From Emiliania huxleyi CCMP1516 (Eukaryota): DNA of 64,000 bases. Numbering within the stretch: the first letter of the stretch is position 1; each line of letters starts with the position of its first letter. This document shows positions 4,259 to 36,687 of this stretch, piece after piece. Below the pieces are notes generated by a model. It was not told where the DNA came from. It searched no databases and saw only the letters and a list, made by a program, of their open reading frames with translations. The stretch covers positions 24,198 through 88,197 of the forward strand of contig NW_005201249.1 in assembly GCF_000372725.1 (NCBI RefSeq). Reading direction: 5' to 3'. Both the position numbers and the translations under genes were made by a program.

Positions 4259-4526
4259 CTGCGAGAATTCGCCGAACGGCGGCTGCGAGGCCGGCTCGGA
4301 GAACTGGGGGGACAGCGCTGGCGGCGGAGGCAGAGGCGGCAGAGGTAGATGTTGCGGGCGACGCAGCGGCGCGCGGCGCAGGGGCGGATGGCGCTGTTGT
4401 CTCACGGACCGCGGTGAACGCCCTCCNNNNNNNNNNNNNNNNNNNNNNNNNNNNNNNNNNNNNNNNNNNNNNNNNNNNNNNNNNNNNNNNNNNNNNNNNN
4501 NNNNNNNNNNNNNNNNNNNNNNNNNN

Positions 4527-14613: not shown

Positions 14614-15103
14614 CCCCCTAAACAAATAAAGGTACCGCCCTCGCGGTACCGCAGTGAGTACCGCCCAAAACAGTGCTGCTTTTCGGCCGAAATGGCCTCT
14701 TGACGTCCCGCTCTGGGCTTTCCAGGATGACAGAATTGGCCTTCGCCAGACTGGGGACTATTGTGCGCCTCGGCGAGGCGGTTCCGGACATCCCGATCGC
14801 GAGCGCAGTGGACTCATCTTGCCGGTCACTGCCGGCGGTCGACAACTGCCCTTCGAGCAGCGTCGGGTACCGCCGGCAAGATGAGGTCCACCGCGCTCGG
14901 AATCGGGAATTCGGGATGGCCGGAACCGCCTCGCCGAGGCGCACAATAGTCCTCAGTCTGGCGAAGGCCAATTCTGTCATCCTGGGCCGCCGCTGACATC
15001 TCTCTCTCGACCGGTACCTCGCTTGGGCGGTACCGGGCAAATGCCGGTACCGGCGCTCAAAACCTGCGGTACCGCAGTGCGGTCGCTTTATTTGTTTACG
15101 GGG
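14614..15103. mobile_element. MITE with CCCC-start TIRs, 3-bp TCA target duplication and a long internal hairpin (CMC/EnSpm-like)
   Basis: TCA|CCCCCTAAACAAATAAAG ... CTTTATTTGTTTACGGGG|TCA. Internal ~75-bp arms at 14722-14797 and 14909-14985, inner arms at 14813-14825 and 14873-14885. Confidence 0.85.
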
Positions 15104-15142
15104 TCACTTTCTTTACTTCCACGCGCCGACGAGAGCACTCCC

Positions 15143-17182
15143 ATGCCCGGCCGACCAAAAGCCGCCTCCCGGCGCGGACACGCATCAACGGCGGCTGCTG
15201 CGCCGCTCGCGCTGCCGAAAAAGATCGAGGCCGCGGCGGCGGACGGCAAGGCGGGCGTGGTGCAGACGTGGCTCGCCGGGGACGGGCGGGTTGATGCGAC
15301 GTGCGTGCATCGCGGTGTGAGTGGCTGGACGCTCCTGCCGATCGCCGCCGGACACGGTCACAAGCAGCTGGTCGAGGTTCTGCTGAAGCGGGGCGCGAAG
15401 CCGGACGCGAGAGACAGCTACGGCACTACAGCGGTGATGAACGCCGCCGTCAATGGCCACGTGCAGGTGGTCGAGACGCTGCTGCGGCACGGGGCGGAGA
15501 TCAACCTGCAGAACAGCGGCAGCGTCACCGCGCTGATGCTGGCTGCCATCCAAGGCTACGAGCGCGTGGTCGAGCTGCTGCTGCGGCACGGGGCAGAGGT
15601 CGACCTGCAGGACGGCGCCGGCTATACTGCGCTCGCGAGCGCCGCCCTCAATGGCCATGCTGCCGTTCTGCTCCAGCTTCTGCGGGCGGGCGCAGACATG
15701 ACGCTGCGCACTGCGGACGGCGAGACGGCGCTGCAGCTTGCCAAAGAGAAGGGTCACACCGAGTGCATCGCCGCTGTCAAGACGTTTCTCGGCGAGGTGG
15801 CGGCGGAGAGGCGCGACGCGGCGGCGGTCGAGGCGGGCGGCGAGGGCAGCGCTTCGGGCGGCAGCAGCGGGCCTGTTCCCGAGGAGATCGGCGCGGCGGG
15901 CGGCGCAGGGGCGGACGGCGATGCCGCCTCGGGCAAGGGAGCGGCGGCGGAACCGACTGCCGCGTCCTCTTCTGGCGGCGTGGAGAGCGGAACGGGCGAG
16001 GACGCCGTCCCCGAGGAGGTCGTGGCGGCGGCTAAGCAAGGCGACGAGGCGGTGCTGGCGTGGCTCGACGGCGGCGGGCGGGTGGACGCGACTTTCACTC
16101 GTGAGGGTCTGAGCGGCCTCACGCTGCTGATGGGCGCTGTCTCCGGCGGCCACTGGCGGCTGGCCGCGGCGCTGCTGCAGCGTGGCGCTTCGATCGACCT
16201 TCAAAACAGCGGCGGCAGCACCGCGCTGAAGCTCGCCGCCCTCCTGGGCCACGAGCGGCTGGCAGCGATGCTGCTGCAGCGTGGCGCTTCGATCGACCTT
16301 CAGAACCGCGTCGGCAGCACCGCGCTGACGATCGCCGCCGGTATCGGACACCCCGCTGCTCTCCACTGCCTGCTGCGGGCGGGCGCCGACACGAAGCTGC
16401 GCACGGAGTCTGGACGCACAGCGCTGCAGTTTGCCAAGGAGGAGGGCCACGCCGAGTGCGTGCGCGCCCTTGAGGAGCATGCGGCGGCTGAAAAGGCGGC
16501 GGAGGCGGTGGCGAAGGAGGCGGCGTGGGCTGCGGGGGCGGCGGAGAGGGCGGCGGAGCGGGCGGCGGCGGAGGCGGAGGCTGCGCGGCACGCCGAGGAG
16601 CTGCTGGCGGAGGTCGAGGCGGAGAAGCGCGGCAAGGGCAAGAAGGGCAAGAAGAAGAAGAAGGGCGGCGGGAGCGGCGGCGCTGGGCCGTCGCAGGATC
16701 CCGAGGCGCCGTCGGAGGCAGCCGCAGCCGAGGCCGCAAAGAAAGCCGAGGAGGCGAGATTGATCAGGCTTCTCGAGACGCTCCACGAGGAGCGGATTCG
16801 GTACCGCATCACGGCGGAGACGTCGGTCGAGGGGCTGGCCGAGGCGTTGGGAGAGGAGGCCGAGGCGGCAGGCGAAGCGAGCGAGGAGGAGGCGGCGGAG
16901 GCGGGTGAGGAGGCAGCCTGGGTGGCAGCGGAGGCGCGCCGGGAGGCCGAAGGCGAGGCGGACGCTCTGGCAGCGGCAGAGGAGGAGGCGGCTGCCGCGG
17001 CGGCGGCGGCGGCGGCGGCGGCTGCGGCTGCGGCGGCGGCTGCGGCGGCGGCGGCGGTGGCAGAGGCGGCGGCTGCGGCGGCGGCGGCAGAGGCGGCGGA
17101 GGTGGCGGAGGCGGCACTGGCTGCCGTCAAGGCGAGGCGCGCGTCAGCGGCCGCCGCGAGGGCCAAGGCGAATGCCGACTAG
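15143..17182 (+). CDS. Ankyrin-repeat protein (two ankyrin blocks, Lys-rich patch, Ala/Glu-rich tail)
   Basis: Repeated G-x-TAL-x-x-AA-x-x-GH-x-x-VV-x-x-LL-x-x-GA units. Intronless. First ATG after the MITE is at 15143. Confidence 0.9.
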   Translation: MPGRPKAASRRGHASTAAAAPLALPKKIEAAAADGKAGVVQTWLAGDGRVDATCVHRGVSGWTLLPIAAGHGHKQLVEVLLKRGAKPDARDSYGTTAVMNAAVNGHVQVVETLLRHGAEINLQNSGSVTALMLAAIQGYERVVELLLRHGAEVDLQDGAGYTALASAALNGHAAVLLQLLRAGADMTLRTADGETALQLAKEKGHTECIAAVKTFLGEVAAERRDAAAVEAGGEGSASGGSSGPVPEEIGAAGGAGADGDAASGKGAAAEPTAASSSGGVESGTGEDAVPEEVVAAAKQGDEAVLAWLDGGGRVDATFTREGLSGLTLLMGAVSGGHWRLAAALLQRGASIDLQNSGGSTALKLAALLGHERLAAMLLQRGASIDLQNRVGSTALTIAAGIGHPAALHCLLRAGADTKLRTESGRTALQFAKEEGHAECVRALEEHAAAEKAAEAVAKEAAWAAGAAERAAERAAAEAEAARHAEELLAEVEAEKRGKGKKGKKKKKGGGSGGAGPSQDPEAPSEAAAAEAAKKAEEARLIRLLETLHEERIRYRITAETSVEGLAEALGEEAEAAGEASEEEAAEAGEEAAWVAAEARREAEGEADALAAAEEEAAAAAAAAAAAAAAAAAAAAAAAVAEAAAAAAAAEAAEVAEAALAAVKARRASAAAARAKANAD

Positions 17183-17570: not shown

Positions 17571-18617
17571 TCACTCCGCAAAGTCGCTCTCTAGCTTTAT
17601 CGCCGACAGCCGCTCCTGCCACGCCTCGCCCCGCGCGACCAGCCGCGCCCACCGCGGCAGGTCCTCGCCGTCCTCCAGCGCGGCGGCCGCCCCCTCCGGG
17701 TCGGCCATCCTCGCGGCGGCCTCCTCGTCCAACCGGAGGTGCACCTGCCGGGAGGCGGGTGTTGGGAGGCGGCGTGGCGCGTGGCGGATCCGAGGCGGAG
17801 GCGGGGCGCGGAGGCTGGAGCCGAGAGAGAGGAGGTGTGGGCGAGCGCCTCGAGAGGCGCCGCCATCAGCTGCGCCTCTGTGGGCGAGAGCCGCTCCGGC
17901 CACTCGACGAGTGAGACGCAGTCGCGGAAGACGGCGGGCAGGTCGACCAGCTGCCCCACCTGAGAGGTTGGAGACAGCGGCGCCCTGGGTGAGGAGGGCG
18001 TCGTGTCTGGCCACTGCGTGCCGCGGCCGGTAGGTTGGACTCCGTTCCGCATCTAGCCCCTCGCCTTGCCCTCAGGCAGCCTCCACAGGTCCATGTGGTG
18101 CACGGTGACGCCTGAGCGAAAACAGAGAGGCAGGCTAGAGGACCACCAAGCTCTGCAGATTGTGCGTGCGTGTCCATGTCTGTGTGCGCGTGCGTGTGCT
18201 TGCTGCGCGTGCTGTGCGTGCTGTGGCGTGGCGTGCTGTGCGTGCGTGGCGTGCTGTGCGTGTGTCCTAGTGACGGCCGCCTGGCTGCAGCGCGCCGCCC
18301 TCCTCGTCGGGGTAAGTGTTGTCAATCAGGTAGCTGGGCGAGGCGACGTGGAGCGAGGCGTCCTCGTCGCCCAGCCACCGACGGATAAAGCCGCGTGCCA
18401 GGCACGTCTTGCCCGCACCGTACCCTCCGTGCAGCAGTAGCGTGTCGCCGGCACGCGCGCGCTCGGCCAGCGCGGCGCCGAGCGCCATGGTGTCGCCTGC
18501 CGTTGGGAGCGGCAGCCAAGGTGTCCCAACGTCCGCCGCGGTCACACCCAGGCTGCGATGAGCCGGCCGGGCGGACAGCAGCGTCGGCCAGCCGCGCGCT
18601 AGACTCAGGAGCGCCAT
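17571..18617 (-). CDS. tsaE: TsaE/YjeE t6A biosynthesis P-loop ATPase with N-terminal targeting extension (multi-exon)
   Basis: TMALGAALA...GDTLLLHGGYGAGKTCLARGF, VASPSYLIDNTY, VHHMDLWRL and VSLVEWPERL match the YjeE motifs (GxxGAGKT, SPT(Y/F), HxDxYRL, xEW). Confidence 0.9.
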
Positions 18618-18945
18618 GGACAGGATTGCGCTTTTACTTTTTTTCTAGTCGCGCCGCGCGGGGAGGCCTCATCTCTCCCTCCCTCCGACTCTCTCTATTG
18701 CCGCCCCATTCGTGATAGGGACTTTATTTGCAACTGAGTTTCTTCCTCTTCTCTTGGCCGTAGATTGTTGCTTTTGTTGGCCAGCCGCTCGAGCCGCGAA
18801 GAGGCTTGACCGCAATAAAGGCAAGAGAGGAGTTGGAAGGCGGGAAAAAAAAGAAGTGAAACGCAGCGCGGAGAGTGTCTTGATTGCGTGCGCTCTGCTC
18901 TGGCTGCTCACTTGGTCTCCGAGAGAGAGCCACCTCTCCGGAGGC

Positions 18946-21900
18946 ATGCTGATTCGGATCCGGACGCCCGAGAACGAAACCATCAGGCTGCAGGTTGATT
19001 CGAGCACAAATTTCTCAGACCTCCTCGCGCAGGCGGCGGCCGCGGCTTCGTGCTCTCTCGATGCGGCAAGTCTCTCCCTGAACGGGACGGATGCAATTGT
19101 GGCAGTTTCGAACGCGTCTGTGGCTGAGGCGGGACTGGCGCAAGGAAACTTGATTTACCTGCTCGTTCGTGCCGAGGGTGACGAGACGGCGACTCCGAGT
19201 CCTAGCGACACCCGTCAGGCGCCACCAATCGCCGCCCTGCCGCCGTCACCAATCAAGGCTCAAGGAGAGGCCTCTGGTACGGGGGACGAGACGGTGACTC
19301 CGAGTCCTAGCGACATTGCGCCACCCGTCGCCGCCCTGCCGCCGCCAATCCGAGAGGCCTCTGGGACGATTGCCGGAACATCGGCACGCGCAGCTGCAAG
19401 GCGGCGGCTGGGCAGGCACTTGCGGCAGGACAAGGTTGCCAAGCGCCGCGGCCTCACCGTCGGCCTCACCGTCCCACAGTCACCGGCAGAGAGCGGCGGA
19501 AGCGCGGAGGAGGCCATGCCGGACGGCGCGGTCACGGAGGCCACGCCGGACGGCGCTGTCACGGAGGCCACGCCGGACGGCGCTGTCACGGAGGCCACGC
19601 CGGACGGCGCTGTCGCGGAGCAGGCCACGCCAGACGAGGGCGTGACTGCGCCCGTGGGTGGCCCGCTGGCGGCCATCACCCCGCCGCCGCCCCTCGCCGC
19701 CTCGTGCCGCGAGGAGGAGCTGCGCAAGGCAACGCTCAACAAGTGGAAGGTGCTGCTCTTCGGCAAGAGCTCGCCGGACAAGGGTCTCAAGCCGCTCATG
19801 CGGAGGCTCCGGCGGCTCAAGGCGGGCGGCGCGTCGGCGCCGGCACTCAAGGGCGGCGGCGCTCTCTCCCTGCACGGGCTGCAAGAGGCGGCGAGGGCGG
19901 CGGTGCAGCAGGCGCAGGAGGAGGGCCTCGAGCTCGCAAAGGCGACGCGGAAGGACAACTCGAGCGGCTACGCCAACGTCTCGCTCGACAAGACGCGGTC
20001 CCGCAACCTGGGGCACGACATGTACACCGTGCGCGTCCGCTTCAACGGCAAGCGGCCCAACCTCGGCTGGTTCTCGACGGCGGAGGAGGCGGCGCTCGCC
20101 TTTGCCCGGCACAAGGCGGGCAAGCCCAAGGTGGAGCTGCGCAGCTCCGTCGGCGGCGCGGCCGCGCCCGGGACGCGCAAGCGCAAGCGCTCTGGCGGCG
20201 CCCCCTCGGGCGGCACCGCGCTCCTCGGCGGCACGGTGAGCGTGGGCGGCGACTCCTCCGCTCCGTGGGCGTCGAACCGCCAAGGCGCGGGCCCGCCTTC
20301 GCTGGAGGGGGGCTCGTGGGTGTGGGCCAAAGACGGCGCCGGCAAGTGGGGCAAGGCGACGGTCCTCGCGGTCGAGGGCGGCGCTCCGGCGGAGCTGGGC
20401 GACGAGCAAGAGCTGAAGCTCGCTCTGCTCCTCTCGACGCTCCGCCCGGAGGCTTCGGGCGTCGCGCTCGCTGCCAAGTTCAAGCGGCTGGCGAGCGGCA
20501 AGGCGCCCTCCAGCCCGACCACGGCGCGCGTGCGCTTCTTCCTCTTCTCGTCGAAGCACGACGCGGCCATCCCTGTCGGCTGCGGCAGGCTGCGGCCCTT
20601 CGAGGCGTGGGCGGACGTCGAAGGGCGGCTGCGCCCGGCGTGGTCGGCGACGGGACACAAGTGGCTCGGCCTGCGCGTGGCCCGGAGGTTTCACCCAGCA
20701 GGGCGCTCCGTCGTCAAGTGCTACGGCACCGTCACCAGCTGGGTGCCCGCCGACGAGACGGAGAAGGATCCGCCGCTCTGGCGCATCGAGCACGACGACG
20801 GCGACAAGGAGGACCTCGAGGAGGAGGACGTGCGGGCGGGGATCGAGCTCTTCCAGAAGCAGGCGGCGGCCAAGGGACGGCGCGGCGGCGGCGGGCAGCC
20901 GCAGCAGGAGGAAGGTGTGCTCGAGCCGCTCCCGGCGGCGAGCGCGGCGGCGGAGGGGCAGGGGAGCGGGAGCGACAAGAACGTCGAGGCCCTCTCGCCG
21001 GCCACCGCTGTGGCGGCAGAGAAGGCGGCAGCTGAGGAGGCGGCGGAGGAGGCGGCAGCGGCTGAGGAGGCGTCGGGGGAGGCGGCGGTTGGGATGGCGG
21101 CGGGGGAGGCGACGGGGGAGGCGGAGGCGGCTCCGACCCCGAAGCGCGCGGCGAGGAAGCTGCCGCCGCAGACACCGCAGAAGAAGCTGCCGCCGCAGGC
21201 ACCGCCGCCTGGCGCAGGGCCACCGCTGCCTCGGCTGCCAGGTCTTGGCGAGGCGGAGAAGGTGGAGGAGTGGCTGTCGCTCAAGCAGGGCGACCCTGAC
21301 CTGATCGGCTGGCTGCGCGAGCTCCCGCGCGTCGCTGGCGCCGTGGCGGAACAGTCGGCCTGGGAGGAGCTGATCAGCAGGTTCCGCGTCGGGCTCGTCC
21401 GCCGGACGAACGGCGCCTTCGACCGCTACTATCGGTCGCTCAGCGGCAAGGTGTACTGCTCGCGCGCCGAGATTGCGAAAGCCTTCAACTTTGTGCCCCC
21501 CCGCGGCGGCGGCAGCGGCAGCCGCAGCGGCGGCGGCGGCGAGGCGAGGCCGCTCGCTGTGCACGGAGGCGCGGGTGCCGAGGCGCGGTTGCGGGCGCAA
21601 CTGCTGCAAACGCTTCGCAAGTACTTTGGCCACGAGGCCTTCCGCGGCAGTCAGGAAGAGGTCATCCTCAAGTTGCTCCAGGGGAACCACGTCTTCTACC
21701 AGGAGCGGACCGGCCTGGGCAAGTCGCTCGTCTACCAGCTTCCGGCCCTGCTGGAGACGCCGTCCAAAGGCCGCATCACGCTGGTCATCTCGCCGCTGCG
21801 CTCGCTGATGCAGAACCAGGTCATGCAGCTCAACGCGGCCGCGAGGGCGCGCTGGGAGGAGGACGTCGCCATCTTCCTCGACCAGTCCTGCGGGAAGGGC

Positions 21901-24900
21901 GAGCTGGCGAGCGTCGAGCGGCGGCGCCTGGTGTACTGCACCCCGGAGAAGCTGTTTCACAAGGACGGCCAGAACGACCTTTTCAAGCTGCTCCTCAAAA
22001 TGAACAAGGCGGGCAAGCTGCTCCTCATCGCCATCGACGAGGCGCAATGCGTGCGCAAGTGCTCCTCGTGGCGCCCCTCCTTCGCGCTGCTCGCCTCGGC
22101 CCTCTCACCGCTCAACCAGCTGGACAAGGCGCGGCCCGCCCTCCCCGAGGCCCGCCCTCCCCGAGTTACTCCACACCCTCGACACTCCACACCCTCGACA
22201 CTCCACACCCTCGAGACCGTGGCGCCTGCTGCGACGACTGTAGGTGCGCCGCGTCCCGAAACTGCTCATCACCCCGATGGCCGGCGACGAGGCGGCCCGC
22301 AGCGACATCTTCGAGCGGCTCGGGATGCGCGACGTGTCCGTCTTCCGCTCGCCGTCCCTGCGCAGCGAGCTCTCGATCCGCGTGCACATCGACCCGTTCA
22401 AGTCGACCCGCTATGGCGAGGCGATGGCGCACTCGCTCGGCTGGCTGATCGCCGCGCTGCAGAAGGAGCCCGAGTTCACGCTCGTCCTCGTCTCCACGAC
22501 CAAGCTCTGCGAGAATGTGTGCAAGCTCCTGCGCGACTATGAGGTCTCGGCCGACTGCTTCCACGCGCAAATGGCGGAGGAGGACAAGAAGGTCGCGCAG
22601 TCCAACTTTGAGGAGGCCAAGGTGCTCGTCTTTGTGGCGACGATGGGCTCCTTCGGGATGGGCGTGCACTCGTCCAAGCCGATCAAGCACGTCGTCCACT
22701 ACGGTGCGCCGCAGTCTCTCGAAGACTACTACAATGAGGTCGGACGCGCGGGCCGCGACGGTGCGCACGCGCGCTGCACGCTCATCCTCACCTCGGAGGA
22801 CATCACCAAGTACAGCGGCGGGATGTGGACCAAGGATAAGGACGCGCAGCAGCAGGAGCAGCAGCTCGACGCAATCCGCGGCGTGCGCGAGTTCGCCCTT
22901 AACTGCGAAAAGTGTCGGTGGCAGTCTCTCACGGAGCGCCTGGATGACGGTGCTGTCGTCGACCCGTGCGGCATGTGCGACGTCTGCTGCGCGCCGCTGG
23001 CGGCGCCGCCGAAGGCCGAGTTTGGAAGCATCTTCGCCTTCTTGATCCGCCTCGTCTACGAGGCGACGCGCAAGGGCGAGTCGTACACGCCGCAGACCTG
23101 GCGCGAGCTGTGGGTCTTCGCGCGCAGCAGCACGGCCTTGCGCGCCGAGGAGAGCAAGCTGCCGGCGGCTGTCCGCACAAGCGGGCCTCGCGCGGGCAAG
23201 ATGCTCGGCGCTTGCCTCTCCTTCCTGTTGGCGCCCCAGGGCCTCGTCGACATCTCGCTGCGCTCGCCGAGCAACTACGGGCGCGGCTGGGGCCAGGGGT
23301 TCGAGCAGTTCGCGCTGAGCGAAGCGGGGCTGGCGCTGTACAAGGCGGGGCTCGCGGGCCTCTCGTACCGGGCACCGCTGCCGCCCATGCTCTACTTCTT
23401 GCCGCCCGGGCACGAGTGCGGCTCCACCCGCCCCGCGGGGAGCTTGCTCGAGGTGGCGGCGGAGGCGGAGCAGCCCTCGCCGCGGCTGCGTGGCAGGCGC
23501 ACCGCGTGTGCAGCCTCGTGCGGCTGCCCCCTGGCGGACGGCGCAATCGAGTGCAGCGGCTGCGTGACCTGGTTTCACCCGGTGAGCCTCCCTTCCGCCC
23601 TTTGCCACCCAACGTCGCCACAACCGCGCCGCGCCGCCGCTCGCGCAGGCTTGCCTCGAGAAGGCGGAGGGAGTGAGGTGGCTCCGCGACGCCAACGACG
23701 GCAAGCGCAGGTACCTCTGCGCGAGCTGCAAGGAGCTCGACATCAACTTTGTCGAGCGCGTCGTTGGCAGGCGTCGGGGCAAATCGGTGACGGTGGATGC
23801 GGAGGTGCGGAGGGCCGTCGAGAGCGAGGTGATCGTCGCCGCCCGCGTGTCCGTGGCCGCCGGCGGGCGCGTCGCCTTCCAGCTAAGTGTCAACTCGGCG
23901 CGGGCGAAGATGTGCCGCATCATGGAGGGCGAGGACTCGTCGGCGAGTCGCATCACCGCATGGCGCCGGAGATTGTAGGGCGAGAGGCCGACGCGCCTCC
24001 TCCCGTTTTCTAGGAAACAAAGTGCTACCTCGCCGTGTGGGAGCTCCCGGACGAGGAGGGCTGGTTGAGCTGGCAGTCGGAGGCGAAGCTGACGCAGCAC
24101 GCCAAGGAGGCGCTGCTCGAGTACAAGGAGGCGCATGAGGCGCCGCCGCCGCCAAGGGGCGGCCGCAAGCGCGTCGTGCTGGACGAGGACGAGGACGGAC
24201 CTCGGGTGCCCGACGGTCCGAGCGACGGCCCGGAGCCACCGAGGCCCACGCGATCGCGCAAGCCACCACAGACCTTCCAGGCGGGGTCGGCGACGAGTGA
24301 CTGCAAGAGGCTCAGGCTCGCCGCGGCATCAGCATCGCCACCACGCCCTGCGGCGGCACCGGCGGCGGCAGCGCCCTCTTGCCCGACCGGCGCAAGGTCG
24401 CCGCCACCGGAGCAGCCGCCGCCTCACCTCTTGGACGAGGCGATGGAGGTGGAGGTGGAGGAGCCGGCGGCGGCGGAGGCTTGCCCGTTGCGCAAGAGGG
24501 CGATGGATGCCGCAGAGGCGGCCTTGGCGAAGCTGCCCCCGCAGCTGCGCCGCTCGCTCGAGTCCGAGGGCGTGCGGCGCTTGCGGCCCCAGACGGCGGA
24601 GGCTCTCACGAGGGCGTTCGAGGACGACCAGCCCCAAGCTGCGGGCCGCCTCTTCGCTTGCCTCTTCGCTTGCCGCGAGTCCGGCCTCGCGCTCGCTCAG
24701 CTCGACTCCGACCGCCGCGACGAGCTGCTCGAGGCGGCGGTGGTCGATGGCGGCGACGCGGCGATCAAGATAGCGCAGGATCTGCCAGGCGGGCAGCTCA
24801 CCCGCCCCTTCTTTATGGCGGACGAGGACGAGCTGGCGAAGCAGGGGTCGTGCGTCGTCTACAAGGTCGAGCTGGACGCGGAGGGCAAGCCCGAGAAGTT

Positions 24901-27900
24901 TACCTCCAAGCCCGACACTTCGACGGTCGCCCACAGCGTCCTCGGCTCCTCCAACCTGCTGAGGGTCGTGCCGTACGACTTGTCCGAGTTTACGCCGCTG
25001 GCCAAGCAGCAGGCGCAGCGCGAGCAATGCGAGCAGCTCGGCCAAGGCATCGACGTGCTCGGGCGACGCTTCAAGTTCCTTGCCTTCAAGACAGACCACA
25101 AGGTGTGTGCAGCGCGTGATGAGTCACCGCCCGTAGCCCTCCTCTCGCCCCCAGACCACGTGACGACGCCACCGCAGATGGCTGCGATGAAGATGATCTT
25201 CGTCGCGACGGCGGCGAGCGGGGAGACGGCGACCGCGCGCGACTTTCTCGGCGCAGGGCGCTACGGCGATGGCGATGGCGCATACGACGACGGCGATGAC
25301 GGGGGTGGCCTACCCCGCTTGCTCTCGCTGTCCTCCTCTTCGTCAGAGGCGCTTGGGCCGCGGGGCTGGTCGACGCCCGAGGAGGCTCGCGGCCTGCTCG
25401 GCTCCTTTGGCAAGCTCCCCAAGGTCCACAAGTTCGTCAAGCGCCTCGAGCTCATGCTCTCGCACACGCTGCCGGTGCTGACCCACTTGCAGGTCAAGAT
25501 GGGGAAGCGGCTCGAGGGGCGGGTGACGCTCGAGCAGCTCAAGGCCTTGGCTGCAGCGCCCCGGGGCACGGCGCTCGTCGTCATCTGCGACGACATCCCC
25601 GGCCTCGACGCGATGGGCGGGGAGACTTTTGACCCGCGCGGAGCGCAGCGCATCATGACGGACGGCGCGGGGCTGGTCTCGATCTCCCTCGCGAAGCAGT
25701 TTCCCGCCGTGAGCAACGGGCGAGTCGTGTCTGGTGGCGAGTCGGCGCTGCGGGACTTTGGCACCAACGAGAAGGTTGCGCCGCTCGTGACGCAGCTGCG
25801 GGCGTGGGTGCAGGGCAGCCTGGCCAAGGGCACCGTCACAGCGTGCCCGCTGCTGGCCGACGGCATCATCGTATTGCGCCGGTCGATGCTCAAGATCGAC
25901 GCGATCGACCCCGGCCTCTCGGATTTTAGCCGCATTGAGATCTGCGGCACGAGCGAGCGGGCGTCCAAAGTGCGACTCAACGCGAGCTTCGTCCCGCTGC
26001 TGATGGCGGGTGCGAAGCGGCAGGGCGACAAGGCCGCGCAGCAGATGTACAAGATCTTCGAGGAGCTGCAGGACGAGGAGGTCAAGCGCATCCGCTCGCT
26101 GACTGGGGCGCCGAGCGACGGCCAGGGCCTCAAGCAGGCGCTCGAACGGCTGAAGGGCGGGAAGCTCCTCTCGTCGCACGAGCGGGCTGGGGCAATGTTG
26201 CACGCCGGCTTCACCCTGCAGGAGCCGCGCCTCCGCGAGGAGCTCAACTTCATCCAGGCGGACCACCTCGCACGCCTCCGCAGGGCGCGTCGCTGCCATG
26301 CAAGCCCCGGTGCAGGCACGCCTCTGCCCCTCCCATCCTAGCTCGGACCACGTGTAGGCGAACATTCCGGTGCCAAACTCGTACGTCCTGCTCGGCATCC
26401 CCGACCAGAGCGGCACGCTGGAGGAGGGCGAGGTGGTTGTCATCCACGGCGGCAATCTCCTCTCCCCTCTGGCGGACTGCTCGAGCCAGCAGTCCATCGA
26501 TGTCCTCGTCTACAAGCCTCCGGCTTGCGCCCCCTCCCCCGCCCCCGCCGCCTCCTAGCCCGCCCTCACCGCCGCCACCCTCTCGGCCGCTACCGAGCCC
26601 GCCGCCTCCCTCTCGCCGCCTCCTCCCAGCCCACGACTTCCCTCGCCTCCACAGCCCTCTCTTTCTTCACCCAGCCCTCCGCCGCCTTCGCCACCGCCTC
26701 CTTGCGCCTCACCATCCTCTCCGGCCCACAGGGCGCGCACGAGGGCGACGTCCGCAAACTGCGCTGCCTCTGCCAGAACCTCCCCAAGCAACTGAGTGCG
26801 ATGCTGAAGGGAGTGATGTCAAGGCGCGCCAACGCCGTCATTCTCTCCACCAAGGGCGAACGCGCCACGGGCGACAAGTCGGCAGGAAGCGACTATGACG
26901 GTGAGCCTGCAGTTCCGTCACCGCCCACCGTCCGTGCCGCCATCCAGCTCCACGCCCCCCGCCACTACGCAGGCGACCTCTACAGCGTCATCGCTCAGCC
27001 GCAGATCGTCGCCCTCTTCGACGAGAGGACGCCGTGGGACGTCAAGCCGCTCGCCAAGCCCGCCGCCGAGCCCGCCCCCACGAGGCACGACGACCCTCAA
27101 GCGCTGCAGCAGCAGCTCCTCAAGCACTACATGCACCTGCGGTACGACTCGGCGCCGACGGTGGGCACGTCGGCGGTCAATCTCATGGCCTTCCAGGACC
27201 GCGGCGAGACTCAGGCGTGCGAGCGGCTCGTCGACATCTACAACGCCGCGCTCGACGCTGGCGTGACGGGCGAGGTGCCCTCGCTCCCCGACGACCTGCG
27301 GAGCCAGGCGCGTCGAGCTGCTGCCCTGCGCCCCTGCTCGAGCGCCAGCGAGCTCAGCCCTGCCCGTGCCTTGGAGCGCCAGGTGCGGCCGATTTGGATG
27401 CGAGAGCGCTACGCCGGCGGCAAGGGCTTGACGTTTGAGGACACGGACTCGGCAATGTGCAAGCTGTACACGCGCCTCGCGCCGGAATCTACTCCGGCGG
27501 CGACCCGCCTCCCTCAGGTCTTGCTCGACCCCGACCTGCGGGCGCTGGCCACGTCGGGGGGGGAGCAGCGGCCGCTGGTGGAGCTGTGGAAGGGTCGGGT
27601 GGTCCAGTACAAGTCGCTGGTCCGCGACATCCTCTCCAAGCCGCAGCCTCCGCTGCTCTCGAACGAGGCTGCGCCCCGCACCGCTCTCTCGCACCCAGCC
27701 TGGCCAGTAGCCATGACACTCACCCTTTCGGTCTCCGCAGGACGAAGAGGCTGCGCGGCGGCAGGAGATCAAGGAGATCGGCGCCTCGTACCGCAAGCTC
27801 CTCCTCGCCAACCACGACCAGGCCGAGGGCGGCTGGGACATCGAGGTCGAGCCGCCCCGCTCGCTTCTCATCGAGGCGCGTCCTGCTCGCCTTGCGTCTC

Positions 27901-28147
27901 TAACTCAGCCGTCGCCATCGCCCTCCGACTGCAGCGTCCCCGGCCCACGCAGGCCTGCCTCGTGTACAAGGTCACCTACGAGCACGAGATGGCCAAGCGC
28001 CGCGGGCAAGACAAGCGCCCCACGTGCGAGGGAGCCGCCCACGGCGCCACCAGCGGCCTCGCCTTCCCGTGGGTCATCGCCACGGACTTCCTCTGCCGCG
28101 CCAAGGAGCTCAAGGTCAAGCAGCAGGCTCTCGGCCGGCGCCCGTAG
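18946..28147 (+). CDS. Multidomain RecQ helicase / RNA-dependent RNA polymerase (QDE-1/RDR-gamma type) fusion with UBL, AP2, Tudor/PWWP-like, MBD-like, PHD and chromo domains
   Basis: Proposed phase-compatible introns: 22129-22243, 23582-23648, 23805-24013, 25103-25177, 26285-26357, 26523-26731, 26901-26972, plus a few near the 3' end. RecQ motifs: YFGHEAFRGSQ, TGLGKS, ISPLRSLM, YCTPEKL, IDEAQC, FGMGV, YYNEVGRAGRDG, CR...CGMCDVC. RdRP motifs: TDGAG, QLR...AKGT, LRRSMLK, LLGIPDQSGTLEEGEV, YKPPGAHEGDV, STKGER...AGSDYDGDLY, FPW. Confidence 0.88.
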
Positions 28148-28375
28148 TGGTCGTGAGCGGAGGCGCCCGCCCACATGCGTCATGAGCCGTAGGAGCCCAG
28201 AGCGAGGGGTGGGGCCCAAATTGAGTGTACGATCGTGTAGTACTGAGTGCGATGTTTGTGGGTGGTTGGTGACGAGCGACGGTACGGTCGTCTGCAGCAC
28301 CGTGATAGAGGTCGATGTAAGATGACGATCGATGTGTTTTGGCTAGCCTTTGTTGGGACGCTTAGGCTTACACGG

Positions 28376-28548
<173 letters not shown>

Positions 28549-28971: not shown

Positions 28972-30350
28972 TCAGTCGTCGTCCATGGCGCCAAACTCAT
29001 CCGAGTCCTCCTCCGACTCGCCCCCATCCTCCTGCAGCCATGTTTTGTTGGCCAGTCGCTCGAGCCGCGAAGAGGCGTCGGCGGTCAAGCCTGAGGCGTT
29101 AAATAAAGGCAAGAGAGGAGTGTGAGTAGGTAGGCCCGCCGCCACCTGCACCGCGCTGGCCGCCGTCTGCGCCACGCTGGCGAGCTGCTCGACCCCGCCG
29201 CTCCCTCTCCCTCCTCCCACGAGGCTCGAGAACTGGTCGCGAATGGGTCGCCAGTACGCTCTCGCGTCCTGCCCCGACGGAAAGCCCGCCGGGCCGAAGA
29301 GGATCGGCCACACGTGGTTCTGCATGTTTTTGAAGTGCACCCTCACCGTGTTCGCCCCCCGCCCGAGCTCACGCTGCAGCCGCCAGGACGCGAGCGACTG
29401 TCGGATGCGGCTCGTCAGCAGATACTGCAAAAACATGACAGTGAGCTGCTGGCACGGGTACCCGTCCTGCATCCCGTTTGCCCAGCTGGCGCGCATCACC
29501 GCATCGCCGCCGTCTTCGTCAGACCGGTTCATCTCCCCCTTGAACTCGCGCCACCGCTTCAGCACCTCGCCGCATTGCATCCTCAGGTTGTGGCCGAGCG
29601 GCGCGAGCATTGAAGCCGCCCCGCGCTCCGCCGGCGCCGCAATGGGTTGATGCAGCACCGCCGCCACGATGGCGCTCGGCCTCCGCATCCGCGAGTCTCT
29701 CAGCGACGCCGTGGTGTCCGCCGCCGCGAGCGGCGCCAGCAGCGCCGCCTGCGCCGCCGCCTGCTCCTCCGCCGCCCTCTGCCTCTTCTCTTTGGGCGCG
29801 TCAGCCCACTCCTGGTGCTGCAAGGCGCGCGCTCGCCCGCCTCGCGCTTCGCCTTGCTCGTGGGCGGACGGGCGTACGCGAACAGCTCCTCCGCGTCGCC
29901 CGCCGCCGCCCGCCTTGCTGCGGGCACGGTGTGCAGCGCCTCCACCGGCCAAGCCTCCCGCAACGCCGCGCCGCGGCCCTCGCCCAGCCGCCGGAATGGT
30001 CCGCCACCACCGTTCGCCTTGTCCGCCGCTCGGGCCGCCGCCGTCAGCGCCGCGCCCCCGCCGACGAATACGAGCGGACTCGGCATGGTGTGCGGCCGGC
30101 CCTGCGCCACCGCCACGCTCCGGTGGGTGTCGGTCGGTGGGCCTGACGCAATGAGACACGCTCCGCACCTCCGAAGCCTCCGAACGTTCGATTCGCCCCG
30201 TCCGTTAACGTCTAACCGCCCGCCGCGCATAACTGACTCCTCATCACCTCCCTGCTAACATACACCGAAGCCTCTCGTAACGTCTAACCGCCCGCCGCGC
30301 TAACTGACTCCTCATCACCTCCCTACGAACATACAACGACGACGACATCT
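28972..30350 (-). mobile_element. Degenerate element, copy 1, with a frameshifted ORF resembling a tyrosine-recombinase N-terminal (core-binding) domain
   Basis: 29433-30334 is largely duplicated at 31057-31875. The ORF contains KRWREFK...YPCQQLTVMFLQYLL...GRGANTVRVHFKNM, similar to the helical SAM-like domain of DIRS/Crypton recombinases. No catalytic R-H-R-Y region was seen. Confidence 0.4.
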
Positions 30351-31056: not shown

Positions 31057-31875
31057 AACATGACAGTGAGCTGCTGGCACGGGTACCCGTCCTGCATCCC
31101 GTTCGCCCAGCTGGCGCGCATCACCGCATCGCCGCCGTCTTCGTCAGACCGGTTCATCTCCCCCTTGAACTCGCGCCACCGCTTCAGCACCTCGCCGCAT
31201 TGCATCCTCAGGTTGTGGCCGAGCGGCGCGAGCATTGAAGCCGCCCGCTCCGCCGGCGCCGCAATGGGTTGATGCAGCACCGCCGCCACGATGGCGCTCG
31301 GCCTCCGCATCCGCGAGTCTCCCAGCGACGCCGTGGTGTCCGCCGCCGCGAGCGGCGCCAGCAGCGCCGCCTGCACCGCTGCCCGCTCCTCCGCCGCCCT
31401 CTGCCTCTTCTCTTTGGGCGCGTCAGCCCACTCCTGGTGCTGCAAGGCGCGCCGCTCGCCCGCCTCGCGCTTTGCCTTGCTCGTGGGCGGACGGGCGTAC
31501 GCAAACAGCTCGTCCGCGTCGCCCGCCGCCGCCCGCCTTGCTGCGGGCACGGTGTGCAGCGCCTCCACCGGCCAAGCCTCCCGCAACGCCGCGCCGCGGC
31601 CCTCGCCCAGCCGCCGGAATGGTCCGCCACCACCGTTCGCCTTGTCCGCCGCTCGGGCCGCCGCCGTCAGCGCCGCGCCCCCGCCGACGAACACGAGCGG
31701 ACTCGGCATGGTGTGCGGCCGGCCCTGCGCCACCGCCACGCTCCGGTGGGTGTCGGTCGTGGGCCTGCCTGACGCAATGAGACACGCTCCGCTCCAACCT
31801 CCAACCTCCGAGCCTCTCGTAACGTCTAACCGCCCGCCGCGCTAACTGACTCCTCATCACCTCCCTACGAACATA
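31057..31875 (-). mobile_element. Degenerate element, copy 2 (direct repeat of ~29433-30334)
   Basis: Near-identical ~800-bp duplication. Open frame MPSPLVFVGG...QQLTVMF is truncated at 31057. Confidence 0.6.
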
Positions 31876-32349
31876 CATATGTAGGAAGGTGAAGAACAGT
31901 CAGGCTCGGACTGGACACCAACGCGGTATGGGTGGACGCGGGACAGATGATGACGACACGCACGAGCGACACACAGACACAAACAGGCTCACAAGACACA
32001 CAGCCAGCTGGCTGCCACACACCCTGAGTTGGCGTACACATAACTCAAGGCCGCGCCCCCCCCCTGTCGCCTCCCCCAGCCAAGGTGCCGAAGGAACAAA
32101 CAAGGGCACAACAACACAACAGACGACAGGGGCGAACGCGTGAGGCTAGAGCAGGCTTGCTCGGCCTCTAGCAATCTCCGCCGACCGCGAGGCCGGACTA
32201 GACCGTGTGTGGGGTCGTGTGAGGTGTCTCTGGTCACTCTCCTCAGAGGCTAGCCGCCAGCCGCTAGCCCTATCTCGCACTCACTGGCGGTGACAATTCT
32301 ATGGGTGAGCGTATGCGAGTAGAGGCGCGTGAGCCGATTCTAGGTCGCA
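31876..32349 (-). mobile_element. Second copy of the retroposon-like repeat at 7993-8490
   Basis: Colinear similarity from TATGTAGGAAGGTGAAGAACA to TCTAGG(C/T)CGCA. Confidence 0.75.
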
Positions 32350-32976
32350 TGCCATTGGCATATAACTTGGCTTGGCGTGCGACCGCAGCGCGCCCGCCGT
32401 CAGCTCGACGGTGCGCGCATGTCAGCGAGAGGTTTGCCGGTAGAGCGATCCCGGTCTTGTCGAACGCGAGCCCCGCGCCACGGTTGCCAGCCGTGCCTTC
32501 GCGAGAGTCGCCCTCGGGCCGCGTCCCGTCGGCACTACCCTCGAGTGCGTGTCGCTTTGGTTGGCGACACCCACTCGTCGAGGGCAGTCCGGCCGACGGG
32601 AGCCTGTCGCGCGCCGGCGACGAATGCGGCGTGTGTGTGCGTTAGAAGCGACGATGGCACGACCACCGCCCTGCTCCCTGACCGGGCAAGGAGGGGCCTA
32701 CTCCCGTTCCGCGAGGAACAGGAGGTCAACCAACGCGGGCGGGGCGAGCTCAGATCAGCACTGCCGGAAGGGGGGTGGGCGGGGGGCACGCTGGAGAGGG
32801 CGGTCGCTGCCTCGTCTCGGTGGCTCTCAGCAAGAGGCACCGATGTCACACATCAAAATGAGGCAGGGCATCGAGCGATAAAAAAGAAATCGTTTACCCG
32901 GCACGGGACGGTGATCACCTCCTTTGACGCGCGGCGAGTTAACCTTTGGGCGAGCGTCGCCATCGCGCCCGTCCAC

Positions 32977-35900
32977 ATGGTTGCCCCGCCGAGTAAACCG
33001 CCGCCGAGCGCGGAGTACTTGTCCCGCTCAAGGAGAACTGTGGAGGCAAGATCGGCTGAGGCTTGGCAGGCACAGCGCAAGAACTGCCAGGCGGCCGCTC
33101 CGCCGCGCACGGCGGCTTTGGACATAGATCCCTTGCCCCGCGGCAGCGTCACATGGGCCCCGCTCGGCGTCGAGCGCTTCTCCGCCGAGCCCCGCGGCAT
33201 CGGCATCGGCGGCAGCACGCTACTGGAGCAGTGCCGTGAGGACTTATCGAGCAAGGCCTGCAAGCACAAGCAGAAGATCGGGATTGGCATGGTGCTGTGC
33301 TGCTTCCTCGGCATCGCGGGCGGCGTCGGTGGCGGCGTGGGCGGGGGCGTCGGAGCCGGCGTGCCGGCAGTCGCTGCTGCGGCTGCCGTGGTTGCCAGAA
33401 CAATCATGGTGAATGCACCCGCGCCAGCGCCTGCGCCGGGGCCCAGCTCGCCAGCGCCCGCAAACGCGCCGCACGGGCAAGGGCATGGCACCGGCAATGG
33501 GCAGGGTCAAGGTCAGGGTCACGGTCTGGGCATGGCGGGCGCAGGCGCGGCGGGAGCTGGCGCAGCGGGCGCGGGCGTGCTCGACTGCCGCTGGCTCGAC
33601 TTCGACCACGGCTCCTTCTGGCCGATTGCAAACCAGTTCATCGTCGTGATACGGCCCGAATTTGCGGCCAAGGAGTGGGCGGAGGAGTACGAGGACTGGT
33701 GGTACTACACAGACCTGGGTGACCCGATGCTCTTGCCAAACTACTATTCGCACCTCGCCACGATTGAGCGCGTGCTCAACGCCGCCGTCGTTCGTGCGGG
33801 CTGGGGCGTCGTCGTCGACATCCTCCAGGACGAGCGCGTCGAGCGCGTCGCGTTTGACTGCGCCGTGCACGCCGACGTCTCGTTGCACCCAGATGCGGCG
33901 AGCGACGCGGCGGCGGGGCTTGAGCACGAGGCAGAGGTCTGGGCGGCCGACCTTGACCCAACCAACCTGCTCTCGGCCGTGACCCAGTCGTGGCCGCTGC
34001 CACCGCTCTGGCGCCGGCGGCGGGCCCTCGCAGACATCGACGCCGACGGCCTTGAGGAGAACGGGCTGCCTTGGAACCTCGACCGGCTAGACGGCGAAGG
34101 CGGCGTCCTCGACGGTCAGTACAACGATGCGATGGGCGGCGAGGGCGGTAAGGGCGTCAGCGTCTACGTGATGGACACCGGCGTTGCCAAGCACGATGAC
34201 CTTCGAGGCAAGCTGCAGCGCGGCTTCCCAGACGCTGGGATGCTGCGCTCGCTAGAGCGCATCATGGGCCAGGAATGGGACAGCACGGAGTGGCACGAGG
34301 ACGGAATCTTCGAGCCGGGTCCGGGGCGGGGCGATCACGGCACGCATGTTGCGTCTGCAATCGCGGGTGACCGTTTCGGCGTCGCAAAGGGCGCGACGGT
34401 GGTGCCGGTGCAGGTGTTGCAGAACATCGTGCAGAAGGACAGTCAGGGGGAGGTGGACGAGCCCTTTGCGAGCGGCCCAACTTCACTCTTCCTTCTCGCG
34501 CTCGACTGGATCGTCACTGACTTCACTGCCGCCGCCGCCAACACAACCTCGGGGCGGCGCGGTTGCGTCATCAACCTCTCGTACGGCGGCAAGTTCTCAG
34601 GCGACGTGTACGGGTGGTTCTCGCTGCCCGAGGACGCGCTGGCGGCTGTCGAGGCGGCGGGGTGCGTTGTCATCAAGGCGGCAGGCAACGACGGTGGCGC
34701 GGCCTGCAACACCTACCCGGCTGCCTCCCGGCATGGCATCTCGGTCGGCGCGACAGGCAAGCCGCGCCCGTTTGGGAGCGACCCGCTGCTGCCTTGGTCG
34801 AACCACGGCTGCTGCTCCGACATCTTTGCGCCGGGCGAGTCCATCCTCGCGGCGTCAGCCGAGGCGGCCAACGCCACTGCCGCCAGCGACGGCACCTCAT
34901 CGGCTGCGGCGATGGCGTCGGGCGTCGCAGCGCTACTGTGGTCGGAAGACGCCGGCGCAGCGACAGCCGATGAGGTCTTCGTTGCGGTGCTGTGCCTGGC
35001 GGAGCGCGACGCCATCTACGGCGTCTGCCCCTGCGAGGAGGGTGGCACCTGCACCGCCGGCTCGGCCGCGTGTGACGTCGACGAGTCGCCGCTCGCCAAC
35101 GCGACGCTGCAGCAGATGGAAGGCGAAGACGCGGCGACGGCGCAGGCGGCGGTGCAGGATGCGCTGGACACGCCGAACCGCCTCCTCTCGATCATTGCCG
35201 CGGGCGGGAGCTCGGGGTGGCCGCGCACAGGGGAGTGCCTCGCATTCGACCGCCGTGCGTGGGGCTACAAGCCGTGCCTCCCTGCGCAGCCCCTGGCGGG
35301 GAATAGCACCAACGTCACCAACGCCACCGAATGCAAGGATGACCCGTTCGCCCTCCTCCGTCCCGGCTCGGACGCCACGGAGCGGACGGCGGGCGCCGCG
35401 CAAACAGAGCGCGCGGGCAGCGGCGCGGCGGACGCGTCGCAGCAGCTGCCAAAAAAATTCTCATACCCGCAGATCAACTCGACCTGGGTCTGGGCGGGCG
35501 ACTGCCAGTCCGCGATCGAGCACTGGGAGGCCGCGCTGCAGCTTGAGCGCGCCGCCGTCTGCGCCACGAACCTCTCCGTCGCGCTCCGAACCGTCTACCC
35601 TGACGATGCGGAGCGGCCACCGCTGCCGAACGGCCTCAGCGAGGGCTCACAGCTCGCGACGGTCTGCGCCGCGTCGTGCGCGCTGGTCGGGCTCGGCCCA
35701 TGTGTGCCGGGCTGGGAGCCGCACCCCGTCACGGAGGTGGGCGGCTGCCACCCGGCGGGCTCCCTGCTCGAGCTCGCCGGAGGCCGCGCAGTCCGCATCG
35801 AGGATGTGCGGGTCGGCACGCCCGTGCTCACCCCCTCCGGGTACGAGCCGGTGGTCGGCCGGCTGCATGCCGAGCCCATCGTTTCGCGGGAGTACTTTGA

Positions 35901-36687
35901 GATCGTAACCTCCCGCGGTGTGATGTCCATCTCGCCGCTGCACTGGCTGTACGTCAACGGCTCCCTCGCCGACCCCGCGGGAGTGCGCCCCGGCGATTGG
36001 CTCACGGCGCCGGACGATACCCGTGCCGAGGTGCTGTCGGTGCGGCGGACGCTCCGGGAAGGAGCTTACCACATCACGACTCCGAGTGGCGCCTACTACG
36101 TGGATGGACACCTCGCCTCCACCTACATGGCGGTGGTGCCGCACTGGGCGTGGCGGCTCTTTGGCGACGGCTACGTGCGGCTGCGTCACCGCCTCGGCGT
36201 GCCGGTGACCCGAGGGCCGAAAACCGCACAGCCCTTTGAGCAGGCGCCCTCTACACCCGCTGCTGTGAATAGGTGACGCCCGAGGGCGAGGGGCCGCTCA
36301 GCATCTTTTGGCCGTACCATCTCTGGACGGCGCTTGGTGCGCCACCGCCACCGCCACTGGTCGGTCGGTCCGCCAACGCTGCGCGCGAGCATACCCTTCT
36401 CTCGCCCTCTACTCGTAGGCGTGCCGCCCTCTGCTGTGCCTCTCCTGTGGCCCTTCACGATGACCGGCAGACTACCAGGAGGCGTCCGAACCCTTTCTTC
36501 CTTCGCTTTCACGCTCAGCCTGTGAATAGGCACCCTGCTCGCGGAGCTCGCCAACACGGCGGTCCGCCAGCCCCTCGCGCTAGCACACGCCGTCGCCTCA
36601 GGCCTTGCCCTTGGCATGGCGCTGCCTCTGGGGCTGTTGAGGGCGTCGTCGCGAGGCGGCCGCTCTGGGCGCATAAAGATACATTAA
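32977..36687 (+). CDS. S8 subtilisin-like protease fused to a C-terminal Hint (Hog-type) autoprocessing domain
   Basis: Protease motifs: PWNLDRLD, VYVMDTG (Asp 34174), HGTHVAS (His 34336), AAGND, DIFAPG, DGTSSA (Ser 34897), PNRLL. Hint starts at Cys 35746: GG|CHPAGSLLELAGGRAVRIEDVRVGTPVL...ISPLHWLYV...VRPGDWL...GAYHITTPSGAYYVDGHLASTY. Hydrophobic tail exons probably run to TAA 36685-36687. The start Met is uncertain. Confidence 0.88.

Follow-up and report, generated by a model that had tools for sequence, protein, structure and literature searches.

A RecQ-type helicase and a cellular RNA-dependent RNA polymerase (RdRP) are encoded by a single gene, in one spliced reading frame, within a 64,000-nucleotide (nt) stretch of the Emiliania huxleyi CCMP1516 genome (contig NW_005201249.1, positions 24,198 to 88,197 of the forward strand; hereafter the window, to which all positions refer). 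From its N-terminus, the encoded chain displays ubiquitin-like, AP2-like, Tudor-like and MBD-like regions, the RecQ core, a Zn-binding region with a predicted winged helix, a PHD finger, an unproven chromo-like segment, a low-complexity linker and the RdRP (Table 1). The gene is best regarded as a new form, single-chain and apparently chromatin-reading, of a known partnership between helicase and polymerase, and we give roughly even chances to the reading, drawn by analogy, that the protein is a one-chain, chromatin-targeted version of the QDE-3/QDE-1 silencing initiator of Neurospora.

A first-pass annotation of the window had proposed that helicase and polymerase form one gene, and this is confirmed by a single stop-free frame and by spliced contigs across the junction. 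Joining the exons at ten contig joints yields 8,295 nt encoding 2,764 amino acids (aa) with zero internal stops, from the ATG at 18946 to the TAG at 28147. Seven of the ten introns are of the GC-AG type, in a window with a GC content of ~70%; for E. huxleyi, 56–65% of junctions have been reported to carry GC donors (PMC4028052; papers are cited by such identifiers and for those parts of them that were available). The splicing evidence consists of contigs from eight sequencing runs of five studies, out of 17 runs listed as matching, 14 of which share ~70% of the sequence words: these runs are labelled 'RNA?', none being on record as RNA, and were read as complementary DNA because their contigs lack the ten GT/GC-AG segments. 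Contigs of the gene start at 18892–18907, and five of the eight runs (X2, X4, X6, X7 and X11, from three studies) contain a continuous contig that links the helicase core with the polymerase, those of X6 and X11 measuring 6,272 and 6,025 nt. In the main contigs, every strain indel listed for the coding region has a length divisible by three. Two further observations concern the coding region: exon 1 contains a 27-base tandem repeat (19520–19670) with strain length differences that keep the frame, and one contig of X1, not the main one, shows a one-base deletion at 24744.

The two halves are joined across intron 3. Here the first-pass annotation had placed an intron at 23805–24013, and had held that a lack of splicing at these positions would speak against the fusion. 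All eight runs splice 23943–24013 instead, with bases 23805–23942 showing a coding-type GC content at third codon positions (GC3) of 0.96, and the donor at 23805 is absent among the joints listed, which are complete for four runs and in the other listing comprise all but 25 weaker joints. Whilst splicing at 23805–24013 is thus literally lacking, the fusion survives the correction of the donor because 23943–24013 also keeps the frame. The preceding phase-0 intron, 23582–23648, had been placed correctly: it is spliced in seven of the eight runs, and the contig of the eighth breaks there.

The in-frame splicing of intron 3 in all eight runs, together with the finding that no contig piece among those listed for these runs covers the intron, also speaks against an explanation in which the locus makes two products – a ~1,616-aa helicase if intron 3 is retained, or a polymerase transcript of its own at the 3' side – with the fused form being minor or an assembly merge. 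Retention would lead to a stop at 23976–23978, E. huxleyi often retains introns (PMC4028052), and the contigs are interrupted in three of the eight runs (X1, X9 and X12); in addition, X1, X4 and X9 show greater depth for their 3' contigs, as either 3' bias or an additional shorter transcript would produce. The longest contigs cover part of the gene, with none of the eight runs spanning it whole, and a single molecule is not provable from short-read contigs. We nevertheless regard the two-product explanation as very improbable: the contig breaks lie at a different place in each of the three runs, and in other organisms both cores are found within one NCBI gene model and within each of several predicted proteins.

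The cores themselves are found on the same strand and where they had been proposed (~21600–22990 for the RecQ core with its Zn region and ~24840–28100 for the RdRP). In the helicase half, Pfam identifies DEAD (E 2e-17) and Helicase_C (E 1e-10) on the plus strand, with RecQ_Zn_bind (E 2e-4) below the cut-off, and the top 36 PDB sequence matches of the helicase all belong to the RecQ family. The Zn-binding region exhibits four invariant Cys/Arg positions across the relatives. The best fold matches of the helicase model are the RecQ core and the D2-Zn-winged-helix portion of RECQ1, with the fold alignment reaching Z 26.6 and a root-mean-square deviation of 5.5 over 257 aligned residues, within a range that extends to model residue 389. 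Sequence matches and model together support a RecQ-type helicase with a predicted D2-Zn-winged-helix fold.

In case of the polymerase, two Pfam RdRP (PF05183) matches above the cut-off (E 4e-23 and 2e-10) lie within 24014–28144, whilst the polymerase exon alone gave no PDB sequence match. Ten residues are invariant in an alignment of seven sequences: D2130, Q2174, R2176, K2185, K2207, P2392, D2446, D2448, D2450 and D2543. The nearest named relatives in the polymerase tree, which contained no alpha plant enzyme and no QDE-1, are an RdRP from Chlamydomonas eustigma and plant proteins that cluster, at support 99, with a protein annotated as RDR5. The plant RDR3/4/5 enzymes are alike in the surroundings of the Pro-gate, although the proteins scanned are of ~1,000 aa and hold the RdRP domain only. 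Family profiles place RDR2 (120.6 bits) ahead of QDE-1 (107.5 bits; PDB entry 2j7n, which we take to be QDE-1), as does a second profile comparison (65 against 53). The low QDE-1 score may be due to QDE-1 itself evolving fast (PMC4861493). By motif, the catalytic DYDGD, product-binding and Pro-gate positions correspond to those of Neurospora QDE-1, comprising Q736, R738, K743, K767, the Pro-gate proline, the trigger-loop aspartate and the three aspartates (PMC9508822). The earlier assignment to the gamma type is favoured by the RDR3–5-type relatives and the likeness in motifs, but not by the PDB profiles with RDR2 in first place; on sequence grounds there is a fair case that the polymerase is gamma-like. 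DYDGD was also considered as a clade marker and rejected, since the second residue varies in fused members (L, H or Y).

In order to gauge the range of this layout, a full-library search with polymerase exon 5 was used, which returned 101 representatives; Pfam was run on 28 of these, picked by length or score, and a helicase profile on all 101. At least 250 residues precede the polymerase profile in nine representatives, and RecQ parts were found in six of these nine (P0014, P0021, P0023, P0052, P0064 and P0084). Of the others, P0079 is 52% identical to P0064 and has no RecQ match of its own, whilst P0031 and P0053 are long enough and lack RecQ parts; most remaining matches among the 101 are fragments that cannot show a fusion. 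The fused relatives share ~25–30% identity with the E. huxleyi protein in both cores. P0014 and P0102 are identical over the searched region to AB1Y20_007552 of Prymnesium parvum (P0138, an NCBI model of 2,726 aa, labelled 'hypothetical protein' and, in UniRef, 'DNA 3'-5' helicase'): one gene model here likewise holds the order from RecQ and Zn region to RdRP, although with canonical helicase motifs, DLDGD and an N-terminus different from that in E. huxleyi. A partial protein from Prymnesium sp. is fused as well. The RecQ-RdRP layout thus recurs in other organisms and is, judging by these predicted proteins, shared with other haptophytes and further relatives.

Every long fused member that was inspected has reader modules ahead of its cores or between them, although the set varies: PHD intervenes in P0014 and P0021, a weak Chromo match in P0084 and weak Tudor matches in P0023 and P0052. 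Such readers close to the cores point to chromatin. A quick LG+G4 tree was built from 39 polymerase cores (708 columns), leaving out rows lacking DxDGD or coverage (including P0052, P0079, P0084 and P0139) and the duplicate P0138. One of its branches, with a Shimodaira-Hasegawa-like approximate likelihood ratio of 93 and subject to a long-branch warning, sets apart five fused rows together with five unlabelled fragments; this is compatible with a single origin of the fused members. A scan of metagenomes yielded four loci from 596 pattern matches, none with RecQ, where the sequence upstream was limited to ~1.2 kb or less in L001–L003 and L004 was a distant 27% match. Word-based homolog searches of window pieces against longer proteins found no match, a negative of little weight.

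Some observations on these relatives stand apart. The P0138 model skips the PHD-bearing stretch found in P0014 and P0102 and may be mis-spliced there, and it shows a LysM-like segment just before the helicase. A sister clade with support of 100 (P0031, P0053, P0094, P0066 and P0039) consists of gamma-like RdRPs without RecQ, with CCHC zinc knuckles in four of the five; the N-termini of P0031, P0053 and P0094 look FHA-like by eye and gave no Pfam match. EmihRDR1 of an earlier survey (PMC4791657, as far as available) looks like this sister-clade type.

Of the modules that could direct the fusion to chromatin, the PHD finger is the best defined: zinc ligands in the C4-H-C3 order and with PHD spacing are present in the sequence, in a pattern across intron 2 that arose in none of 2,000 whole-protein shuffles and none of 20,000 local shuffles, and Pfam places PHD at the same position in P0014 and P0021. 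By this pattern the finger is real, and it is indeed divided by the phase-0 intron as the first-pass annotation had stated; a two-sequence PHD profile was too weak to beat shuffles. The chromodomain that had been described as split by the next intron is not established. Not only was the donor misplaced, with the true splice adding 46 residues between the chromo-like halves, but neither half has a Pfam match (the halves having been scanned rather than the spliced sequence), and a two-sequence profile reached 0.5 bits with the true splice and 0.9 bits with the earlier one, compared with up to 4.4 bits for shuffles.

The modules ahead of the helicase are candidates of differing weight. The MBD-like region has as its first ESM Atlas match an MBD cluster (0.91, 206 of 256 features, recognition 2090 and so below the 2300 mark), with no Pfam and no PDB sequence match; compared with MeCP2, one of what we take to be two DNA-reading arginines appears replaced. 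In the Tudor-like region, the second barrel (aa 570–635) is PTM/DIR17-like and the first was recognised by eye only, the ESM Atlas score of 0.88 serving as a lead only. The AP2-like region is modelled as three strands and a helix at low predicted local distance difference test (pLDDT) values and has no Pfam match; the single-sequence model of aa 319–645 (mean pLDDT 41) returned no significant fold match.

The functional steps that we infer from the observed architecture – its frame, domain order, catalytic residues and the same order in relatives – would be as follows. The PHD, Tudor-like, MBD-like and AP2-like modules would pick marked or repetitive chromatin; the RecQ core and winged helix would take hold of forks, D-loops, R-loops or G-quadruplexes there, with single-stranded DNA being exposed or held; and the RdRP would copy this DNA into RNA, as QDE-1 does, and then make the second strand to give double-stranded RNA (dsRNA) for a Dicer-like enzyme. 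In Neurospora, too, a helicase of the RecQ family acts together with a cellular two-barrel polymerase: QDE-1 shows strong DNA-dependent polymerase activity with single-stranded DNA, generating dsRNA from this template, RPA stimulates the process, and QDE-3 is needed for QDE-1 to contact RPA (PMC2950127). These are, however, separate proteins bridged by RPA, whereas E. huxleyi presents one chain with a PHD finger, other readers and deviant helicase motifs; its covalent link would replace the QDE-3-dependent, RPA-bridged recruitment.

Several observations weigh against this QDE-3/QDE-1-like function. The E. huxleyi helicase keeps Walker A but departs from its fused relatives in three further motifs, a feature overlooked in the first-pass annotation: motif II has Q for H, motif III reads TPM for TATA and motif VI has N for Q (N-E-V-GR), whilst the full-length P0014 and P0021 keep GK[S/G], DEAH, TATA and Q-x-x-GR. 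An assembly error does not account for this because run X1 differs at none of these places, its motif II, III and VI letters being identical to the window. Intact motifs II, III and VI, as needed for coupling ATP use to unwinding, are not found in the E. huxleyi copy, which may bind rather than unwind, as a weak or uncoupled motor or a DNA-structure clamp. The bit scores of the P0014 RecQ (bacterial RecQ 231, WRN 219, BLM 214, RECQ5 180; a ranking only, not a RecQ tree) do not support orthology of the helicase to QDE-3, BLM or Sgs1. In the polymerase, four of four fused members lack a lysine that two of two plant gamma enzymes, of the RDR3/4/5 group, keep three residues after the trigger-loop aspartate, and the comparisons do not establish orthology to QDE-1. 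Every reader module save the PHD finger lies below curated cut-offs. Finally, the strain changes listed (49, from an incomplete list) comprise 15 synonymous and 34 non-synonymous ones and give no clear sign of purifying selection. What remains of the originally proposed QDE-3 plus QDE-1 identity is hence a RecQ-type helicase and an RdRP with intact catalytic residues, but not the orthology of either half.

Part of this evidence would suit a chromatin-tethered chain that works on RNA templates, with the readers and RecQ releasing newly made transcripts from RNA-DNA hybrids for the RdRP to copy, a scheme resembling the RNA-directed RNA polymerase complex (RDRC) of fission yeast or plant RDR2 beside Pol IV. 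Such a role agrees with RDR2 profile scores exceeding those for QDE-1, with deviant motifs that suit binding, and with the ability of BLM to unwind RNA-DNA hybrids (cited in PMC2950127), but it leaves aside that relatives of ~28% identity have retained a DNA helicase for which a winged helix is predicted, the two complete ones with canonical motifs, and that the active-site surroundings resemble gamma enzymes and QDE-1; we consider RNA templating rather unlikely. More doubtful still is a role in DNA repair or fork restart, with short RNAs or primers made at damaged or stalled forks located by the RecQ core: the PHD, MBD-like and Tudor-like set would, as far as these weak calls go, suit heritable chromatin states over breaks, even though the RecQ family has repair roles, QDE-2-interacting small RNA (qiRNA) is induced by damage (PMC2950127) and the chain begins with a likely ubiquitin-like domain.

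The QDE-3/QDE-1-like reading can be extended to an old and so far overlooked class of initiators in algae and protists that would read DNA methylation and histone marks, open DNA by RecQ and transcribe it themselves to dsRNA, without Pol II or Pol IV, the reader cassette being swapped between lineages to retarget them. This extension is possible, though it falls short of probable. Were it true, the pairing of RecQ with RdRP, so far known in Neurospora quelling alone, would be a general eukaryotic route from DNA structure to small RNA.

The absence of any described RecQ-RdRP fusion, as tentatively supposed at first, agrees with the literature searched, to which most subscription journals did not belong, but fusions of another helicase with RdRP have already been published. 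In Dictyostelium, peronosporomycete oomycetes, Hydra and Nematostella, a superfamily 2 helicase (DEAD and Helicase_C) lies N-terminal to the RdRP, and these helicase-fused RdRPs fall in or at the base of the gamma group (PMC4791657). The helicases are treated there as DEAD-box and compared with that of Dicer, 'RecQ' occurring zero times in the text and supplements searched, whereas the E. huxleyi helicase has RecQ best matches, a Zn region and a predicted winged helix, a distinction that is drawn from description only. The available parts of PMC12366691 mention QDE-3 solely as a separate protein, and diatom RdRPs appear without mention of a fused helicase in those of PMC2724275, PMC3145265 and PMC3155517. 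For E. huxleyi, one inventory gives one RDR with DLDGD (PMC4839659) and another two RDRs of 1,174 and 616 letters (PMC4791657), the starts of which, by eye, are unlike the fusion gene. In the parts available (supplement files 13–19 of PMC4839659 aside), both inventories seem to have missed the fusion polymerase.

In plants, Pol IV-RDR2 with CLSY and SHH1 is alike in concept, in that chromatin marks select loci for dsRNA synthesis. This system is, however, built from a multisubunit polymerase, an SNF2 remodeller and an alpha RdRP, and shares just the RdRP fold with the E. huxleyi fusion. We know of no described Pol IV pathway in haptophytes; to our knowledge, the first recognition of repeats and their conversion into silencing RNA are still open questions, and little is known about what gamma-type RdRPs do outside fungi. 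The one-chain RecQ-RdRP suggests how haptophytes could make repeat-derived small RNAs, and it makes the hand-off from helicase to polymerase testable with one purified protein.

Table 1. Positions of the fusion gene and its parts in the window.
Feature	Position	Strand	Basis and remarks
Whole RecQ-RdRP gene	18946..28147	+	11 exons, 2,764 aa; spliced-contig joints and translation
Exons 1–6	18946-22128, 22244-23581, 23649-23942, 24014-25102, 25178-26284, 26358-26522	+	
Exons 7–11	26732-26900, 26973-27307, 27383-27667, 27741-27875, 27953-28147	+	
Ubiquitin-like domain, likely (aa 1-72)	18946..19161	+	Pfam UN_NPL4 E 0.001, below cut-off
AP2/ERF-like DNA-binding domain, weak (aa 340-392)	19963..20121	+	AtERF1 E 0.21
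Tudor-like region	20308..20850	+	Pfam PF21743 E 0.014-0.032, below cut-off
MBD-like (methyl-CpG-binding fold) domain, likely	21358..21495	+	Directly before helicase; ESM Atlas
RecQ helicase core, two RecA lobes and Zn-binding region	21601..22990	+	Pfam, PDB matches, alignment with fused relatives
Deviant motif II (DEAQ)	22036-22047	+	
Deviant motif III (TPM)	22271-22279	+	
Deviant motif VI, starting with N	22733	+	
Predicted winged helix of RecQ C-terminal (RQC) region	23018..23359	+	Model secondary structure, pLDDT 30-70
PHD finger (aa 1483-1534)	23507..23729	+	Divided by intron 23582-23648
Chromo-like segment, unproven	23745..24118	+	Weak Pfam Chromo E 0.002 at same place in P0084
Intron 3	23943-24013	+	GC-AG, 71 nt, phase 0; 8/8 runs; joins helicase half to polymerase half
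Cellular two-barrel RdRP, gamma-like	24836..28102	+	Pfam PF05183, invariant residues, tree
Catalytic D2446/D2448/D2450	26891-26977	+	Split by phase-1 intron 26901-26972

In the neighbourhood of the fusion, a TsaE-like gene (tRNA t6A ATPase; 18267–18617, minus strand) is situated head to head with it at 328 bases from its ATG, and the two probably share a promoter. A CT microsatellite (~28360–28545) lies just 3' of the fusion gene, followed by a duplication of 837 bases at 96% identity (29432–30264 and 31057–31877) with open frames on the minus strand, the first copy of which has no Pfam match. On the plus strand, the window further contains an ankyrin-repeat gene (14885–17182), a long stop-free frame with a terminal actin domain (3381–7193) and a subtilase (Peptidase_S8) frame (32344–36273) that ends in a sub-threshold Hint module, possibly a self-processing protease.

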